64,000 nt of DNA from Yuukianura sp. NJ FZ-2021 (Eukaryota). Below, piece after piece: positions 13,278-22,838 of the stretch. Position 1 is the stretch's first letter. Each line of letters starts with the position of its first letter. The notes under the pieces were generated by a model. It did not search any database and was not told where the DNA came from. It was given only the letters and a program-made list of their open reading frames with translations. The stretch is taken from positions 5,704,001 to 5,768,000 of the forward strand of contig CM102287.1 in NCBI GenBank assembly GCA_046563655.1, in the 5' to 3' direction. The position numbers and the translations under genes are program-made.

Positions 13278-14779
13278 ATGAGAAATCTTCAGGTGTGTGT
13301 TTTCCCGCAGTTATTAAAGTTAACTTTCCATTTCACTTCTTCTGCCAAAGTGTTACTTTTCTTTTACGATTTGTTTGATTTTAATTTCCAATTCAGCTTT
13401 CACTGCTTCTGGCCCTTGTGGCGTCTACCTTTGGACAGTACGAAGGCGGATTCGGCGGAGGATATCATGGAGGACACGGGTATGGTGGAATTGGAGATGA
13501 CTATGGATATGGTGGACATGGGGGATACGGACATGGACATCATGGTGGCCATGGACACGGATACGCAAGTCCAGTCATCAAAGCAGTTCCGGTCATACCC
13601 AAGGTGGCTGCGGTGGCTAAAACTGTGGATTATTACGTAAGAAGTTACAATTTACAGTGAAAATGCTGCAAAAATATATTTTTACCAAAAAAAAAATCTT
13701 TTTTTAAAAATTAATCGCAGAGTGAACCAAACTATTCGTATTCGTATGGAGTGAGTGACGCCTACACAGGTAAGAGATATGCTTCGGAGACTATAAAATG
13801 AAGCAAAATTACGATTCGTTTTTCAATTTTTTTCATATGTTAATTTTTTTTATTTCAAAAAGTTCGAAATTTCAGTTTTGCTTTGTTTTAATTATCCTCA
13901 ACTTATGTATTACCATCCTTGCTGAACTACATTTTATCAAAGCACATTTTTTTTAAATTATCAACTCAAATTTTAGGTGACAAGAAATCTGCTCATGAGA
14001 CACGCGAGGGAGCTGTCACTAAGGGACAGTACCAAGTCCTCCAACCGTAAACGTCTCATGTTGCATTATTTTGAAAATTGAAATTTTTTGATTTGCAAAA
14101 TGTTGAAATTTTTATTCCAGTGACGGAGTTCTGAGAACTGTGAACTATGTTGCGTAAGTCGCAAAGGAGAAAGATTCTGAAATTTTGGGAAAGTTTTCAT
14201 ACAAAATTTATTCTTTTTTTCTGCATTTCAGAGACCCAGTACACGGTTTCCAGGTATTTTTAATGAAAAATGAAATCTGGAAGTTCACTTTTTATTAATT
14301 CTCACAATTTTTGTATCCAAAATTCCCGTTGCCAGGCAACTGTTCATAATTCGGCTCCAGCAGTTCACGCCGTTGCCAAAGCCGCGGTACCAGTTGCTCC
14401 AGTTGTAGCCAAAGTTCCCGCTTACGGACACGGTCACCACGGAGGCTATGGTCACGAAGGTGGTCACTTGCTTGGTGGCTACGGAGGTCATGAAGGCTAC
14501 GGAGGCCACGCCCACGTCCATGCAGCTCCGCTCAAAGTTGCCACTCCCGTTGTCAAGGCCGTAGCAGCTCCTTACCACCACGGTGGTGGCCACTACGGTG
14601 GAATCGGAGGTGGCTATGATGGAGGCCACGGCGGTCACTACGGCGGTATTGCTCCTTACCACGGTCAAATTCAACGTGTTTCACATGCCAGTGGAGTTAC
14701 ACACTACGGTGGAGCGTTAGCCGTTCCCGTTCATGGCGCTGGTTACGGAGGTCACCATCACTCAAATTACGACTACTGA
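13278..14779 (+). CDS. Cuticle protein, RR-2 type, Gly/His-rich; paralog of 5705-6722
   Basis: Exons 13278-13292, 13397-13636, 13721-13769, 13977-14046, 14121-14153, 14232-14253, 14336-14779. R&R domain [59 protein letters not shown]. Confidence 0.93.
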
Positions 14780-16392
14780 AAACGTAATTAGTCGTAAAAT
14801 TTGATACCGTTTACGTTAGTCTGCTTGGTCCATCCAAAAGACTATACTGACATGAGTCCATTTTTCTAATTATTGACTTCCATAACTAACGACTTCTTCT
14901 GATTTATGTCCGTCTGTCCCTTTGTTACACAAATTTTAATACCCAATGGTAACGATCCTTATTTTTACGATTATTAATCGCCAGTCAAAATACTCTCATT
15001 CTCAGACTTAGCTTTTACGTTTGCCCCTTTCGCAAAATTTTTGCAATTTGCAAACTATTGCAAAAATCGAAAAATTCTTCCGTTTCTGTCCTTCCCTTGC
15101 TTTTTATTTAATGTTTCCTTCATTTCCGTTCGTTTCTGGTCAAGCTAGAATGATGATCAAGCATATATCTAACGTAACTTTCTGCCTCAGTAAGTTAACA
15201 TTAACTAAAAACCTAACTTAAATTAAAGTTTCCCCCTCATAACCTTCTGTAATTAAAGGTTTTCTATAACAGTGGAATCCAAATACTCCCACGCAGTCGT
15301 GCCATTGTTTTGTCTTCCTAAACCTCTACATCATCATCATCACCTTCACTTTCTGTACATTCTTTATGCTTCTTCCCAGAATTCTCAGATGGATCAAGAT
15401 TAAGATTAAAGTTAGTTTAAGTTTACATTATTATTATTATACTAAGCAACAAAAAACAACAATGGAAAGGCCAAAACAATAGAAATAAAAAATTCCCAGT
15501 TTTTTTATACAAAAAATATACATTTTTGTGGTAACATTTCCGATGTATTGTCAACCTTGGTGCGTGGGCTTCGTCCAAGCACGCAATTGCGTCACACCGT
15601 GATGCCACCGTTGTGAAAATTCGCACGGTGTCGTCATGTCGTCGCAGAATCTTGATTTCAGTGAGGCCAAGAAGGCGTCTACTCCAAAATGCTGCGCAAT
15701 ACTTTGAAACAGCATATGTTAAACTTACAAAAAAAATCGGTTTAGTAACATTGGTGTGCGTCTGCTTTTACTTTAAACTGATGCAAGGTGAGAGGAAATA
15801 CTGGCAAGCACATCGTAACGTCTACAATTTATTGCATTGTTTTGTCATGTTGCATAGGATATTGATTGATTTTGAACAAGGAACAAAGATTGCATTTAAA
15901 ATTGACTTGGAAGCAAACAAAGCGTGAGAAGCTTCGTCAGGAAGAAGTTAATAATTGAGAAGACAAGTTAATTAGAAGATCCAATAGTATTGCTTTTGAA
16001 ATGTCTCAGGAAACAGTATCTTTCCACCAAATAAAGTCATGCTTGACTGAATTAATTTCAATTGATGAGTAAAACGTAACAGGAACATATACATAGTAAC
16101 TATGGTAGTAATTGTGATTAGTGTTGAAGGAATGACATGACCTTCCAGTCTGTCCAGGGAATGAGAGTGAGAGATCAGTGGTTGGAATATTGGCAGCAGT
16201 AGCAGCATGGCAACAAGCATCTCTCCTCTCAGGTCTAATCAATGGATGAAATACGAGTTTTAGAAATAGAGCTAATGGAAAAACTAAGGAAAATCTAGCA
16301 AGTAGTATCCAGCAGCACATTAGTTCCAGCAGTTGTCCAGTTCCAGTTCCCCAGTAGTCGTGTTCGAAGTATCCGTCCAGCCACCGGCTTCC

Positions 16393-19300
16393 TCAGCTAG
16401 GGAATTTGGTGAAGAATGCGTAGGTCAAGTCGTAGTTCTGGAAGCGACAGAACTGACTGTCCAATCGAAGCCATTCTTTCAACGCCACGGTCCGGTCCAC
16501 TTCCGCATGCGTTCCGCCAGCCATGCTTGCCTGCAAGGAAGAACAAAAACATGTTAGGAATTGTCTCTTAGTCGTTTTTTAGTCTTATTTTACTCTTTTT
16601 TAGTCCTAGATTAGACTTAATGAGGCTATTTTCTTTAGCAACATCTTTATGTGAGATATGCATCTTGGCTTACCTTGTTAGCCATGAAAGTGAGGACAAA
16701 TTTGCCCGGTTGGAACGTTTCCAAGACGCGAATGATGATGTCCTTGTAAGAGCTTTGTGGATAGTTCGTTTCAAAACTCACGTAAGAAAACTCCTCTTCA
16801 GGTGTAATATGGATCGTCATGTAGCTTCCCTGCAATAATTTCAAAACAACTTTTTCAAAAATTGTTCAAAATTTCTTTAGAATTTGGATATCCTAAAAGA
16901 AACGAGAAGAAAGTTCTACAAAATACAAAATACACTAAAGAAAAAGGAATTTGCACGCAGTACAAACGGAATGACAAACTCACGTTAGGACAATCCTCAT
17001 TTTCATACTTTTGGAGTTGGTGTAAGGAAACACACGGAAAAGCATTTTTAAAACAAGTGCTCTCAGTTATACATAAGATACATCAGTTTTTTAAAACAAG
17101 ATTTTTGGAAAATACACTTTGTGAAAGCATTTTCTTACATTTTTGAAAATTCCATTCATAGAGTAGCCGCATGGGTCAAAAAGATGTTCATTGATGATAG
17201 CGTTTGGGATCAGCTTGTCAATTCCAGATTTCTGGAAACAAAAATCATGTCAGGTTTAAAATTTTTATTTGAAAACAATTTTTGAACTTGGCAACAGTGC
17301 ATAGTTGACATTTTAGGAACTACAGTGGGAAATGTGTCCTTCAAATTTCGAAATCTTACGATGGTAGCTTCCTCCCCACTCTTGCAAACTGCCTTGGTAA
17401 AGATCGACATGACCTTTGGATCCAAATGTGTCATCAAAATTTCAAGCGTTTGATCCGGTTCCTAAACATTTTCAAATTTCAAATGTCAAAATCAAAATTA
17501 TTCATAATTTGCATAGCAAAACGTACCTGAATGCCACCGACACGTCCCTTGGATCTGATTGGTGGATTTAGCGTGTACAGATACCAACAGTCACGGTTGA
17601 TTCCTGAAATGTCACCCACGGAATAGGCGACGCCATCTGAAAAATAGTCAATGCCTAACATAGTAAAAATTGGTTATGGAAGGTGAAAATGTGCCTCCAA
17701 TGAAATATTTATCCGAATTCGGTTTTTTCTCATACCCGTGAACATGTTGTCCAAGAGGTTGACCTCTTCCTCGAAGTTGCGATGAGGAAGGAGTTGAAGC
17801 TCTAACGTTCAAAAATAAAACTTACATAAGTAAAATGAAATTAATAAACTAATTTAATTCATTAGATTAATAAAAACTTACAGGAGCATAGTTACTTACC
17901 AGGACGCTTGTAGTTCTTCCTGGAGTAGAAAACATCTTCAATTTGATCAAATCCAGCATACTTCTGAACGAGCACAAGGAGTGGCTGGAGACACAGCAAA
18001 GTCGTTGTCGTTCCGCAAGTTTTGATCAGAAATCGTCGCTTGGACACAAACAAGCTACTCTCGCTGTAAACCAAAAAGAGAACAAGTTAGGGTCAGGCGG
18101 ACACCCACGGGTCAACTGTGACTCTCCCCAGGTCAACGACACCAAAAAACAGACAAGGGGAGTCACAAGGTTGAAGAATCTTATGAAAATTTAGAACAAA
18201 GTTAAACCAAACTACAAATTAACTTAATTAGAGTAACAATTAACTTAAACCTAGTCAAGCGCATCCACCAAACCGGTGGGGAAAGCGAAGGGGTAACCGC
18301 CCCTTTCTCTGCCTACAATCTACCAGTTACTCAATTCCTCAGAAAGTATTTTCTTAAAAAAAGGGAAATTTTGAAAATTTCGTTACTTTTTTTTAGAAAC
18401 AAAGTGGAGGGCATTGCTTAGAGAAAGTTCATCGGAGTTGACCTTTGTGTAGACAGAGAAGTTAGGGGGTTCCAGAGCTTCAAGGTTGACCTGTAAGCCT
18501 GGGGGCGACTCTAGGAGATCAAACAACGGCAAAGGTCCACCGCCCCTCCGATCGAGCCCCCACGTCCCCTTGCCCCACTCCACTGGGGGGCCACTCCCCA
18601 CCTCTTCCGACTTTACAAAAAAATGCAACGTTATTGCATTAAAATTCAAGCAAAAAAAATGAAAACAAACACTTTAAGGGATTTCAAATTACGAAGAAAA
18701 CAACTTCTGCAAAGAATTTAGAAAACTGAGTTTTAGTCTTTATCTTTACTTTACTTTAATTTTGATTTCCAAATATAACTTTTGTGAAATTTTGAAATTG
18801 TGAATTTTTGTGAAATATGTGAAAATTTAAAAAAAAGTGTCGGAAGAAGTAAAGAGTGCTAAAATTGGGAGAACTGATGAAGTCATACGGTTTGTTTTGG
18901 GCTGCAGCGTTCGTCGATAATCGACTTTGTGGGCACTTTTAAGCACCAATCATGAAGAGAGACTCTGTCAATATGGTTGATGGTACTCAGAAGGCCCTTT
19001 GACCCGCCATTTCTCCATAACAGAGGTCAGAGGTCACAAGACGGACTATACTAAAATGTGGACTAGAGTTTCAAAACGCTCGAGGGCGTCCAGGCACAGA
19101 AGGAAACCGAAGTCTCCGGAAACACGCCTTGTGGGCTCCACCACGAAAGTCCACTAAAATAATCATTGATTAAAACTCAATTTGTTGTACAACTAACATC
19201 ATCATACCCTGTGATGTTTTTTAGTTGTTCTAAACAACATTTGTTTAAAAAAATTGTTGTTGATGAATTTCGAACATTTGATAAAAGTTGAAGTAGACAA

Positions 19301-21851
19301 GTATTGCCAATAGGATAGCAGATTAGTCAGCAACTCGCAAAATAAGCTAAGCTAAAGCAAATAGAAAATCGTTATTTTCGTGAGTGCTAAGATTAGTGCT
19401 TAACAATGGCAGAATTATTTGCCAATTCGCTTGACTTTGGATGATGAAATGACCGATTCGGCAGTGAGTTCTAAAAGTTCAACTCAAATGAAACGTCTAG
19501 CGTTTCAAAGCGTCTATAAATCTTATCAAAGGAAGTTCTTAAGGAGTGTCTGTAGTCTTGTTAAGTATTTAAGAAGGGAAAGGGCAAATCAAAGGGCAAA
19601 AGTCGCTTTCTCAAACAGCATTTCAAATCCTTGATTTTGAACTTTAGAACTTTAGAAATAGAAACTGGATCCTTCAAAATTGAAAAGTCGTTTTTAGAAA
19701 CAGCTTCAGAGATTAGTTCTGTTAAGATGACTAGAAGAGGAAGGAAATCTAGAACAATTGACAATCACTCATGCCAGACCAGACATCGAATGACCAGATA
19801 TTGACCCCATGGTTCCTGCCAGTATCATGAGTATAGCATGACACCACAGTTAAGCTCAAATGTCATTAAAAGTCAAACGCCGATTAGCCAACTTCAGCGG
19901 AACTCCTCAGAAGTGTTTGATTTGACGTCAGTCGAAGGCTGGTTTTAATTCAAACGGGATTTGATAGTCTGACTCTTTGACTTTTACTTTTGACGTTTTA
20001 AGCGAACTTAGCAAAAAGCAGACAAACAAAAAGCGGATGAAACGAGTTTAGAAGAAGCAGAAAGGTTTATTATGACAATTTTGAGAGCCAGAAGTTAGCA
20101 TAAGTTTTTTTTTTGTTTTCGCTTTTCAAAATTTTGTTAGAAAGTCTTTTGGAAAAATTTGTGGCCTTACCTGAGAACGTATGCGTCAATGGAGTCATTG
20201 GACATGAAGCTTACAACTTCACATTTGACAATACGAAGCAAGTCCTCGATTTTGTTGCTGAAAAACAAAAAAAAAATGACGTTTTCGAAAATATTTTGGC
20301 AAAAACTCAAATATTTACAAAAAGCACAAAAAAAACTAATGATAAACTTGGATTTGGAGATGATGAGAAGATTTGATCTTGTCGCAAATTCAGTTCAAGA
20401 ACATTTTGATGCTAACCGCGCATGTTCAAAATTACGAAAAATTGAACCGAATTTGCTATCAGGTTTTTATCACTCTGAAAACTCATGTAAAGCAAAGCAA
20501 TCGTGACCTTTGCCCAAGGCGAAGTCGGATCCGCTGTTCAAAAGTGCTACGAATCTCTGCGGTTTACGCAATTTTAGGAATATATGGTTTACGCAACTCA
20601 AAAGTAATCGTTTCAATTAAGTTTCAAAGGTTAATTAAAATTAAAACCGCGTTGTTATTATTCGAAATGCAAAATCCAATTGAAAAACCGCAAGAATTCA
20701 AAAATTCGTTCAACTCAAACCACGTATTTCAGAATATAACTACTTCCCAGCCTGTGTTTCAAAAAAAAAAACTGCAAATTGAATTTTAGAGAGAAAAAAT
20801 TTCTTGAAATTTTTCAGAAAAACAGACATGTATTTTTAAATTTCAGAAAGAAATTGGGTTGCTTCTTTTAACACTTTATTTTCGACAATTTATTTTTTTA
20901 TCAAGTTCAATGTTTGCCAAATTCTGAGACCCAAATAGCAACAAACAGCACAGCAAAAATTAACATCACAGCACGAGTTTGCTGTTGTGACTCACTTGCC
21001 AAAATTGACCTTCAGCAAATCGGTTTGGCAAAATTCCAGAAAAAAAGTATTTCCGGAAAAAAAATTCCGAAAACTTTGCGATTAGGATTACTGACACATT
21101 TTCGGTTTTAGCTTGAAAGGAACAAACGAGAAGTTGAAGGCTCAGCGTGTAAAAATTATTGATTGACGTTTTTTTTCTAAATTTTTGCAAGGACACACAC
21201 GATGAGAATTTTGTAACAAAGGGCGTAAAGGACGCTTATTGATTTTTCGTTTTAGATGACCGTGCTACAGCATTTATACACAGCTCAAGTGTAACCTTTA
21301 GACGTGAGCAAAAAGTTTGACGTTTTTGCCAAAAAAAACTGCTGCAGTGCGGAACTGAGCAAATTAGCGTAAATGATCCTATCCTACGGTATTTGGACTT
21401 TTGCAAATCCTTGTCACATCTGCAGCTACTCTCACATAAATAAAAAATAGAAAATCCAATGCAAATCCTTCACAGAACTCAATTTGTCTCACGACTTCAT
21501 TCAAACTTCATTTAATATTAACCAACAACACGCAAACAGTTCTGTCAAACCTCTGTCATTTTTTGCAACCATGAACTAAGAGAAATGGGGTTTGAAACTT
21601 TGCCAAAAAAGAAAAACGCTGGCCTCACTCATATACTTTTTGTCAAATCAAATCAAAGTTTAACTTTGCAAAAGCAGTTTGTTTAAAAATCATGTTGAAA
21701 AATGGTAATTTAAAACTGCTTACCGTGGAATTTTGCGTAGGTCGCTCGAGTGCAATTTTGACGAATCCACATTTGTAAACCAAATTTCCAGTAACTTTTC
21801 AACACCTTCGAAGTGCTGGGGTGTCTCATTTTCTTGATCTGAGTCACCCAT
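16393..21851 (-). CDS. SamDC: S-adenosylmethionine decarboxylase proenzyme
   Basis: Exons 21851-21724, 20257-20171, 18063-17900, 17801-17736, 17636-17527, 17461-17360, 17231-17139, 16829-16674, 16530-16393. Motifs [25 protein letters not shown] (autocleavage site), [31 protein letters not shown]; ends FTKFPS-stop. Confidence 0.96.
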
Positions 21852-21939
21852 CCTGTCCAGTCTATCAGAAAAAGCAAAGAACTTTAGTTAACTTAAGATT
21901 AGGATGGACAGATTCGCTTAAACGCAATTTCCCATAAGA

Positions 21940-22257
21940 CTTCTGGTGCATCTCCTGTATGATTGGTTAGGCGCTCAAAAAACTACGACCACACTTTTCG
22001 CAGTAGCACACGCTGATGATCAAAACATCGGACAGCTAGGTGACGAAAACAGTACCCTTCGTCCAGAAAACTTAGGTTTTCCGGAAAATGTTTCTGAAAT
22101 CCTCGGGAAAATCCAGAAAAACTAGGTTTTCTGGGTGAAGGGTACTCTTTTCGTCACCTACTTGTCCGATGTTTTGCTGATCAGCGTGTGCTAATGCGAA
22201 AAGTGTGGTCGTAGTTTTTTGAGCGCCTAACCAATCATTCAGAAAATGCACCAGAAG
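21940..22257. mobile_element. Palindromic MITE-like element in the SAMDC 5' leader intron
   Basis: About 145-bp imperfect inverted arms (cttctggtgca...gattggttaggcgctcaaaaaactacgaccacacttttcgca / tgcgaaaagtgtggtcgtagttttttgagcgcctaaccaatc...tgcaccagaag) with a short spacer. No clear TSD. Confidence 0.75.
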
Positions 22258-22838
22258 ATTGGGTCAGAGTTCACGAATTTCTTGTTTACAATTTATTATT
22301 TCGCATTACGTCACTAAGAGTTGGGGCGACCTGAGAATTGAGTCTCAGAAGTGGCTCATCCACTTCGCCATACCCATTTAGAAAAACCCGCGAAGGAGCG
22401 TCAAATTTGAAATCCAACGCAGTGATTCGCAAGTTAGAATGAGTTGTGCAAAATTTCAATCGTTAAGAATCCACCCGTCCGGGTTTTGCATGATTACGTA
22501 ATGTGGCATTTCTCAATTCTCAGTCGTTGCCATGTCTACAAAACGTTATTTGGCGTTATTTTTATTGACCTGCTGTCTCCCCTTAAAATTAACTTTAAGT
22601 TGTAGAAACTTTCACATTATTTTGGTTCTAAAATCTAAATCAGGCCAAAGAGAAATCTTTTATAGCCTCGCCACGTTTTATGTCTAAAACGTTATGCGCA
22701 AAAGTTAGTACACAACGCGAAGAAACTAGAACTTTCTCCTTTCCCGTTTTCTCCTGCAAAAACGTGCAAAATGTAAAATTCCAAGAGGTCAAACTCGTCT
22801 GTCTCCCAGACTTTCCCGAGTTTGCTCTCAAAACTTAC

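Follow-up and report, generated by a model that had tools for sequence, protein, structure and literature searches.

A gene for the S-adenosylmethionine decarboxylase proenzyme (SAMDC) lies on the minus strand of the window, i.e. the whole 64,000-nt stretch of Yuukianura sp. DNA that was analysed. Its coding sequence (CDS) covers 16396..21851 in about nine exons, from the ATG at 21851 to the last sense codon AGC at 16398-16396. The Pfam family PF01536 matched three exon translations (E 2e-20, 5e-22 and 6e-5), and nine exons from 21848 to 16396 were mapped by tblastn with five SAMDC proteins (P0001-P0005). The last coding exon (16396..16530), placed by the tblastn map and the splice borders, encodes the C-terminal ...YAFFTKFPS, and the CDS ends AAA TTC CCT AGC TGA. 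This first stop codon, TGA at 16395-16393, stands in the context AGC-TGA-G (16392..16398, minus strand). The Pro-Ser C-terminus is common to 57 of the 124 SAMDC proteins fetched; the C-termini are KFPS in named insects and Folsomia, and KAPS in named chelicerates.

Beyond this TGA, the SAMDC frame stays open for 128 sense codons (16009..16392, minus strand). This candidate readthrough tail extends to a second in-frame stop, the TGA at 16006..16008, which is the presumed stall site and where the similarity between loci ceases. An earlier note on this DNA had reported the Pro-Ser-stop end and a 384-nt frame to the TGA at 16008-16006; both were confirmed, and the translation is the same as the one quoted. 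Its chance estimate of about 0.002 for 128 open codons also holds. The value is 0.0022 with equal codon use and 0.0008 with the tail's own base composition, and 2 of 2000 dinucleotide shuffles reached the observed open length (about 0.001). In the six frames of the window, 28 of the 6883 stop-to-stop intervals are at least 128 codons long (0.004, real exons included); in the same stretch as the tail, the +1 frame has five stops and the +2 frame has nine. The tail start GSRWLDGYFEHDYW (16351..16392) is common to the closest relative P0125 (GRRKPDGYFAHDYW), and partly to L030 and L002 (G-L-R...). An internal block, LFLKLVFHPLI (16237..16269), is identical in P0125 and reads LFLTLIFHPLI in L001. 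Polyadenylation upstream of 16006 had been named as evidence that would speak against a translated tail; no AATAAA or ATTAAA was found there, including within the tail, and the first AATAAA 3' of the SAMDC stop is at 15828..15833, 172 nt past the second stop.

The tail also contains the hydrophobic segment that had been pointed out previously (FSLVFPLALFLKLVF), but this segment is neither frame-specific nor conserved. The value for the hydrophobic 15-mers is 2.27 in the tail and 2.39 and 2.65 in two other frames, and the segment is missing from 5 of 14 related tails (L002, L003, L024, L029 and L041). It reflects the T-rich composition, since the off-frames of the same DNA are equally hydrophobic; a hydrophobic degron as a conserved tail feature was rejected for the same reason. 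No Pfam family was found on the window tail, and a word-indexed protein search with it gave no match of near length. When PDB sequences were searched, neither the L011 tail nor the window tail matched an AMD1 nascent chain; the GPR4 match to the window tail (E 0.006) was weak and was judged compositional.

The comparison set comprised 80 SAMDC loci from metagenome contigs, whose groups were assigned only by the SAMDC tree; L011 and L018 were identified as SAMDC in the ESM Atlas. Loci with a SAMDC ending in [F/Y]PS were defined as pancrustacean-type, and there are 16 of them, including 14 with a complete tail. The SAMDC end in the window (FPS-TGA-G) belongs to this type, having [F/Y]-P-S, TGA and a +4 G. 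A test of frame conservation in relatives had been proposed, and it came out in favour of the tail: the post-stop frame is open in all 14 complete loci (29-309 codons), and the frames of L017 and L019 are still open at the contig edge. None of 2000 shuffles reached the open length of L001 (analytic 1.7e-9) or of L030 (1.3e-5); the 29-codon frame of L002 is unremarkable alone (P 0.58). Overall, the open frame is kept across eight lineages, with P down to 1e-9. P0125, to which the window tail is most closely related, is a gene call on another contig with TGA read as W, in which the SAMDC C-terminus is joined to an in-frame homologue of the tail. In a search of 1.84 billion proteins it matched the window tail at E 4.8e-5, and the pairwise E is 1e-13; its SAMDC ends KLPS, compared with KFPS in the window.

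The first stop is TGA in 15/15 pancrustacean-type sequences and is followed by G in 14 of them. The preceding codon is AGC in 13/15 sequences (7/8 lineages), compared with 28% of the Ser codons in the same CDS. UGA-G is not a classical leaky stop context, which counts against readthrough. No shared or unusually stable RNA fold was found 3' of the first stop in 10 sequences (z -1.5 to +2.2). Within groups, the residues directly after the first stop are conserved; the mid-part of the tail shows hardly any conservation and varies in length. The dN/dS of the tail was 0.27-0.49, versus 0.05-0.12 for the CDS of three pairs (protein-guided alignments, which bias the values downward), and the FHPLI block of the window differs from that of L001 by synonymous codons in H, P, L and I. 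Between L004 and L005, which form the closest pair, conservation is 84% in the tail and 85% in the 3'UTR beyond it, which counts against coding constraint. Off-frames are also long in L018-L022. Given the frame and the tail-end peptide kept in all 14 complete loci, the 128-codon frame is no chance frame.

Directly before the second stop, a peptide of the family F-x-W-W-[R/K]-x-K-I-S was found in 14/14 complete pancrustacean-type tails. The strict pattern is present in ten tails, and L001, L024, L029 and L041 carry variants. The window version, DFIWWKDTVS (16009..16038, minus strand), is a candidate arrest peptide; it deviates at two of the best-kept positions, with T for K at -3 and V for I at -2. 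A leave-one-out matrix was built from eight lineages with the window excluded. The window tail end scored 16.6 bits and ranked first of 67,963 stop-free 12-mers, and the runner-up among the 3,239 stop-adjoining 12-mers scored 1.2 bits. A 12-column leave-one-out HMM also gave the tail end the best domain score among 3241 ORF segments; however, this HMM is weak alone (sequence E 0.92, the second match nearly as good), and the position matrix and the ranks were used instead. In the called frame of P0125, read as protein, the end motif was not found (best matrix score -9.8 bits). The six frames of 277,597 nt of loci contain no further copy of the strict pattern, and the 64-kb window contains none. 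Without exception, the motif lies in the SAMDC frame and adjoins a stop, and its codons are synonymous variants: AGG, CGA, CGG, AGA or CGT for R; ATT, ATA or ATC for I; TCC or TCT for S; and AAA or AAG for K. The second stop itself varies among relatives (TGA, TAG or TAA), and the sequence beyond it is unrelated between loci. On this evidence, the end motif is conserved as a peptide.

The tail had been likened to the readthrough tail of vertebrate AMD1. According to the part of Maldosevic et al. 2026 that was available (PMC13025110), the second in-frame stop of human AMD1 is 384 nt downstream, as given in the earlier note, and the 127-aa tail ends ...K-I-P-H-R-Q-G-F-R-P-H-stop; the arrest residues are the FRK clamp (K117, R121 and F124) and the Arg hook (R125). 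The two tails belong to the same enzyme gene, lie in frame after the CDS stop, and are most strongly conserved just before the second stop, in residues that are aromatic and basic. Like the human arrest peptide, the pancrustacean motif has aromatic and basic residues no more than about ten positions from the stop, and most relatives carry a basic residue at -3. However, at the positions of the human K, R, F and R (-11, -7, -4 and -3) the window carries H, W, D and T. Both the FRK clamp and the Arg hook are absent; in the pancrustacean relatives, K is present at -3, but a human-type F-R pair is not. No sequence likeness was seen between the window tail and the 50 human residues printed in the available source text, which were compared by eye. 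The AMD1-like tail stands as regards its frame and where the second stop falls with respect to the conserved peptide, but not as regards the human arrest residues. The similar length (128 codons in the window and 127 in human) was rejected as a meaningful likeness; it is a coincidence, since related tails have 29-309 codons. In vertebrate AMD1, readthrough has been measured (~2%), as has stalling, with footprints that peak at the second stop; for the springtail tail, we infer readthrough and stalling. The tail sequence of L016, which groups with vertebrates in the SAMDC tree, is truncated after 53 codons.

The 128-codon frame is probably a conserved SAMDC readthrough extension, equivalent in pancrustaceans to the C-tail of vertebrate AMD1, and its end is probably a termination-arrest peptide. 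Most ribosomes would terminate at the UGA at 16395-16393; a small fraction would read through in the conserved AGC-UGA-G context, and the tail would be translated at a low level. The middle of the tail might serve as a spacer that is under weak constraint and varies in length. With the second stop in the A site, roughly the last ten residues would occupy the exit tunnel and the peptidyl-transferase centre, and might there slow or block termination, like the aromatic and basic residues of the human tail. This would mark, limit or destroy the protein made by readthrough, and perhaps the mRNA as well. Readthrough, stalling at the motif and any polyamine link are the steps that we infer.

It is also conceivable, although rather unlikely, that the tail is read through but ends in a C-terminal signal (C-degron or sorting signal) and not in an arrest peptide, the long SAMDC isoform being functional or else unstable by design. 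That conservation is limited to the final residues ahead of the stop would be explained equally well by a signal and by an arrest peptide. Several of the ends are [K/R]-x-K-x-x, which loosely resembles a di-lysine signal; the tail ends do not fit the PTS1 pattern, which counts against such a signal. Further support comes from human AMD1, whose readthrough product is lost mainly by the proteasome via hydrophobic tail regions and BAG6, and not by queueing, according to the accessible part of a preprint (10.1101/2022.07.20.500724). In the tails compared here, however, the hydrophobic segment is unconserved and matched by the off-frames, and aromatic and basic residues tight against the stop are the means by which the human peptide arrests.

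A readthrough extension is also to be weighed against other routes by which the tail could be coding, namely alternative splicing around the stop, or a downstream ORF with an initiation of its own. The window tail does contain one in-frame ATG (codon 25); however, an in-frame ATG is missing from 6/15 tails, which means that entry must be via the SAMDC frame, and the Met positions are unconserved. The CDS is intronless in L001-L005 and L018-L024, whereas the window gene has nine exons, which indicates that these contigs are mRNA-derived. The CDS, the TGA and the tail are contiguous in these mature mRNA-like contigs. The conservation of the residues just past the stop, and an invariant first TGA with a variable second stop, also argue against another route, which we regard as quite improbable.

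The frame could also have arisen by chance in the 3'UTR, with the shared end being a conserved RNA element and not a peptide. One 128-codon frame arises about once in 1000 and was here picked from a scan of many genes, and a frame as short as that of L002 needs no explanation. This reading is already disfavoured and very improbable, given a frame kept in eight lineages and a motif that always adjoins the stop in the SAMDC frame and differs at synonymous positions. Moreover, an Rfam search at E<=0.1 gave no match in 11 loci or in window positions 14800-22500; one sub-threshold miRNA match was located elsewhere. A selenocysteine at the TGA, with the tail as ordinary coding sequence, would suit the invariant first stop but can practically be dismissed, since Rfam (E<=0.1) found no SECIS in the same 11 loci and window positions 14800-22500, the middle of a tail of 29-309 codons is barely conserved, and the named SAMDC proteins stop at PS.

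Literature searches for an earlier description of an arthropod SAMDC tail found only one supplement row. Anopheles gambiae AGAP009619, a SamDC orthologue, is a readthrough candidate with 268 codons and TGA-G (Jungreis et al. 2016, Supplemental Data S1, PMC5100048). The previous remark that such a tail was not known from arthropods must be qualified by this row, although the main text is silent on it. AGAP009619 is also an arthropod SAMDC with TGA-G and a long in-frame extension carrying a PhyloCSF-based protein-coding signature; however, no link to AMD1, an end motif or stalling was drawn for it, and it was compared here by its table entry and not by sequence. The SamDC of D. melanogaster is classed as non-readthrough in the same supplement, which counts against the proposed readthrough extension.

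SAMDC tails of 126-250 codons with short off-frames were also found in six annelid-/mollusc-like loci (L006, L007, L011, L012, L013 and L035). The first stop is TGA-G in four of the six (TAG-G in L012 and TGA-A in L035), and a conserved peptide is again close to the second stop. This peptide is different: the motif [K/R]-R-K-L-W-L lies about ten residues before the stop and is often followed by R-x-P-x-stop, an end that is nearer to the human F-R-P-H-stop than the pancrustacean motif is.

Mammalian AMD1 also has the MAGDIS uORF, with a spermidine-dependent pause at its stop (available part of PMC13025110). This uORF is from the same gene family, acts at termination and ends I-S-stop, and most pancrustacean tails end K-I-S-stop; however, it is a six-codon 5' uORF, whereas the pancrustacean element is a 3' extension. 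In the MAGDIS peptide, Asp and Ile are strictly required; the Asp at -3 is replaced by Lys in the pancrustacean tails and by Thr in the window, which ends V-S. A functional link between the two is speculation. No MAGDIS-type uORF was seen in 13 arthropod-type leaders, which, together with the K-I-S-stop end, leads to the suggestion that the 3' tail may carry a polyamine-sensing stall in pancrustaceans. It is possible, albeit doubtful, that a readthrough tail with a termination-arrest end is ancient in animal SAMDC, and that the pancrustacean 3' tail holds the polyamine-sensing stall of the vertebrate 5' uORF. As a part of this tentative ancient origin, pancrustaceans, annelid-/mollusc-like animals and vertebrates might each keep an in-frame post-UGA tail with different end motifs.

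The AMD1 tail is among the very few cellular cases in which readthrough and a programmed stall are coupled; what it is for is disputed, the proposals being a ribosome queue, a degron or mRNA decay. The literature examined describes it only as conserved across vertebrates. The freely varying length of the arthropod tail argues against a fixed-length ribosome counter. The arthropod version offers a natural comparison, with another end motif, a variable length and no MAGDIS-type uORF in the leaders examined. By comparing the versions, the essential features (the frame, the UGA and a peptide right before the second stop) could be told apart from the incidental ones. The pancrustacean end motif is also a new candidate eukaryotic arrest peptide, and these findings suggest that 3'UTR-based translational self-limitation of polyamine synthesis might be widespread in animals.

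The SAMDC (S-adenosylmethionine decarboxylase) gene of the window is encoded on the minus strand from 21851 to 16393. Nine exons were mapped by tblastn with five SAMDC proteins, three of the exon translations matched PF01536 (Pfam), the start ATG lies at 21851, and the splice borders are ordinary. The last exon ends AAA TTC CCT AGC TGA (first stop 16395-16393), and the frame then stays open for 128 sense codons (the tail, 16392-16009, minus strand) until a second TGA (16008-16006), just as the earlier note had described. The chance of an open frame this long is roughly 1 in 1000 (0.0008 by base composition; seen in 2 of 2000 dinucleotide shuffles), and in the other two reading frames the stretch has 5 and 9 stops. 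The objection of early polyadenylation was also checked: no poly(A) signal lies inside the tail, and the first AATAAA past the SAMDC stop is at 15833-15828 (minus strand). A 170-codon open frame rich in Gly, His, Ala and Tyr, with likeness to a low-complexity cuticle-type protein, lies convergently in a patch of raised GC content (at most 55%) at 14267-14779 (plus strand); the SAMDC 3'UTR should therefore be below ~1.2 kb. The tail matched no Pfam family and had no relative in a word-indexed protein search. A weak likeness of tail residues 4-100 (16093-16383, minus strand) to GPR4 (phmmer against PDB chains, E 0.006) was judged compositional.

Metagenome contigs were scanned once with a four-protein SAMDC alignment, giving 80 loci for comparison (L001 etc.). 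The C-terminus was located by tblastn in 33 of them, including three misreads across introns (L031-L033); of the 33, 23 had a post-stop frame that exceeded each of the other two in length (counted from the table), where chance would give about a third. Sixteen loci share the [F/Y]-P-S C-terminus of the window, and the tail is complete in 14, with 29, 43, 49, 50, 74, 97, 104, 106, 128, 133, 134, 137, 173 and 309 codons; in L017 and L019 the tail frame is still open where the contig ends. The frame conservation proposed as a test thus holds among relatives, together with the UGA context and a ten-residue peptide adjoining the second stop; the tail length is not conserved. A fixed-length ribosome counter is unlikely, because the tail lengths span 29-309 codons.

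In the window, as in each of the 14 complete tails, the residues that adjoin the second stop belong to a single peptide family. The tail ends are DFIWWKDTVS (window), HFIWWRDKIS (L030), DFICWKDKIS (L001), LFCWWRTKIS (L018, L020-L023), LFAWWQYKVS (L002), LFVWYRDEIS (L003), HFAWRRFKIV (L004, L005), TARWRSKIS (L029), TTKWRSKIS (L041) and YSYWPSRIS (L024). Their codons vary at synonymous positions between loci; the second stop may be TGA, TAG or TAA, and the sequence past it is unrelated between loci. A strict motif pattern matched 10 loci and the window; neither the six frames of the 277,597 nt nor the rest of the window gave any further match. Since this pattern was composed after the data were seen, a position matrix was built from eight lineages with the window left out. 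By this matrix the window tail end scored 16.6 bits and outranked all the rest of the 67,963 stop-free 12-mers from six frames; the next best of the 3,239 12-mers that precede a stop reached 1.2 bits. A 12-column HMM also placed its best domain score there, weak alone (sequence E 0.92). The window motif departs from its relatives by T for K at -3 and V for I at -2.

The window tail was also searched exhaustively against 1.84 billion representative proteins (HMMER), which found P0125 (E 4.8e-5). This gene call of 178 residues comes from a JGI contig of 973 nt, and its sequence runs ...NKLPS (not KFPS), then W, then a tail homologue; evidently the SAMDC TGA was read as Trp by the gene caller. 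The two tails align in one frame (E 1e-13, 36% identity) and share the blocks DGYF-x-HDYW and LFLKLVFHPLI. The counterpart in L001 is LFLTLIFHPLI, where four of the five codons for FHPLI differ synonymously. P0125 is the closest relative of the window tail, and its called frame holds no end motif (best score -9.8 bits). If its second W is a TGA, the tail would end about one codon off the homologous position with a degenerate motif; the absence may reflect loss, a frameshift or a paralogue.

The first stop is TGA in all 15 sequences, and the next base is G in 14. The Ser codon before it reads AGC in 13 of the 15 (7 of 8 lineages), and AGC makes up 28% of the Ser codons in these CDS; this excess suggests a nucleotide-level context AGC-UGA-G. 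UGA-G is not a classical leaky context, which counts against readthrough. No RNA structure past the first stop is shared between the sequences. A hairpin (ACCCAGA...UCUGGGU) is retained within the L018-L024 group ~11 nt past the UGA (L018:1668-1700, L020:1477-1505), where readthrough stimulators typically lie; neither the window nor the other groups showed an equivalent. No conserved AUG uORF or MAGDIS-like uORF was found in 13 arthropod-type leaders (L001-L005, L017-L024; 61-333 nt, possibly incomplete), only three of which hold any AUG uORF.

The tail might instead be an independently initiated ORF; however, six of the 15 tails have no in-frame ATG. Were the TGA a selenocysteine codon, or the tail end an RNA element, an Rfam match might be seen, but none appeared at E<=0.1 in 11 loci and window 14800-22500 except a sub-threshold miRNA match elsewhere. 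That match (22039-22157, plus strand; MIR2599 precursor family; 38 bits vs gathering score 120; E 1.3e-4) lies a short way upstream of the SAMDC start and is probably chance. Against splicing past the stop, the L001-L005 and L018-L024 contigs hold CDS, TGA and tail in one piece, and their intronless CDS show that they are mRNA-derived. With protein-guided alignments, dN/dS was 0.27-0.49 for the tail (six pairwise comparisons) and 0.05-0.12 for the CDS (three pairs); in the closest pair, the tail is conserved no better than the UTR past it. The tail is very probably a translated and selected extension of SAMDC.

The human AMD1 tail has 127 residues, with the second stop 384 nt downstream (Maldosevic et al. 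2026, PMC13025110), in agreement with the figure given in the earlier note. Its stalling requires an FRK clamp (K117, R121, F124) and an Arg hook (R125), and tail and stall are conserved across vertebrates (PMC13025110); the words "invertebrate" and "Drosophila" are absent from that paper. The window tail ends ...KHDFIWWKDTVS, with H, W, D and T at these four positions, so it shares no sequence homology with the human arrest peptide. The role of the human tail is disputed: no queue of footprints was seen (PMC7089771), a preprint ascribes product loss to hydrophobic degrons and BAG6 (10.1101/2022.07.20.500724), and the authors who first gave reporter evidence for queueing have themselves qualified it (PMC8831848). 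A hydrophobic segment had been pointed out in the window tail; hydrophobicity proved neither frame-specific nor conserved among relatives, and a conserved hydrophobic degron was rejected.

The earlier note knew of no description of such a tail in arthropods. A full-text literature search (Yordanova et al. 2018 and some supplementary files lay outside it) turned up no paper that connects SAMDC of arthropods with a tail like that of AMD1; however, the Anopheles gambiae SamDC orthologue AGAP009619-RA is listed as a readthrough candidate (268 codons, TGA-G) in Supplemental Data S1 of Jungreis et al. 2016 (PMC5100048). The same source classes D. melanogaster SamDC as non-readthrough, which counts against our reading, and SamDC, polyamine and decarboxylase are all absent from its main text. 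The central idea of an AMD1-like tail agrees with the comparison of relatives, and the best reading is that pancrustaceans have a variant of the AMD1 readthrough tail that carries a candidate arrest peptide of its own; a stall mechanism at its end has about an even chance.

The reference proteins in the SAMDC tree numbered 33: the protein P0001 and 32 from named species. The window clades with the springtail Folsomia candida, P0001, L001 and L003 (SH-aLRT 99), nested in a pancrustacean clade (99) with named insects, L002, L004, L017 and the L018-L024 group. By these placements, the window most likely stems from a springtail and the tail is pancrustacean-wide, not confined to one lineage. Named chelicerates, whose SAMDC ends KAPS, are the sister group; the post-stop frame of the only KAPS locus (L015) spans 28 codons and lacks the end motif. 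L016 groups with vertebrates (Xenopus, skate) and ends QQS-TGA-G; 53 or more codons then stay open until the contig runs out, as the known AMD1 tail would predict. Long in-frame post-stop ORFs also occur in non-arthropod loci, complete in L006, L007, L011, L012, L013 and L035 (126-250 codons; off-frames at most 59) and cut off by the contig end in L008 and L009. L011 and L013 group with the leech Helobdella, and L012 with molluscs. The first stop is TGA-G in most of these tails, which share a start ...H-H-x-C and [K/R]-R-K-L-W-L ~ten residues before the second stop, with synonymous codon differences; many end R-x-P-x-stop, recalling F-R-P-H-stop of human AMD1. Since annelid- and mollusc-like loci have tails of their own, with a different motif, the SAMDC tail arrangement may be ancient in animals.
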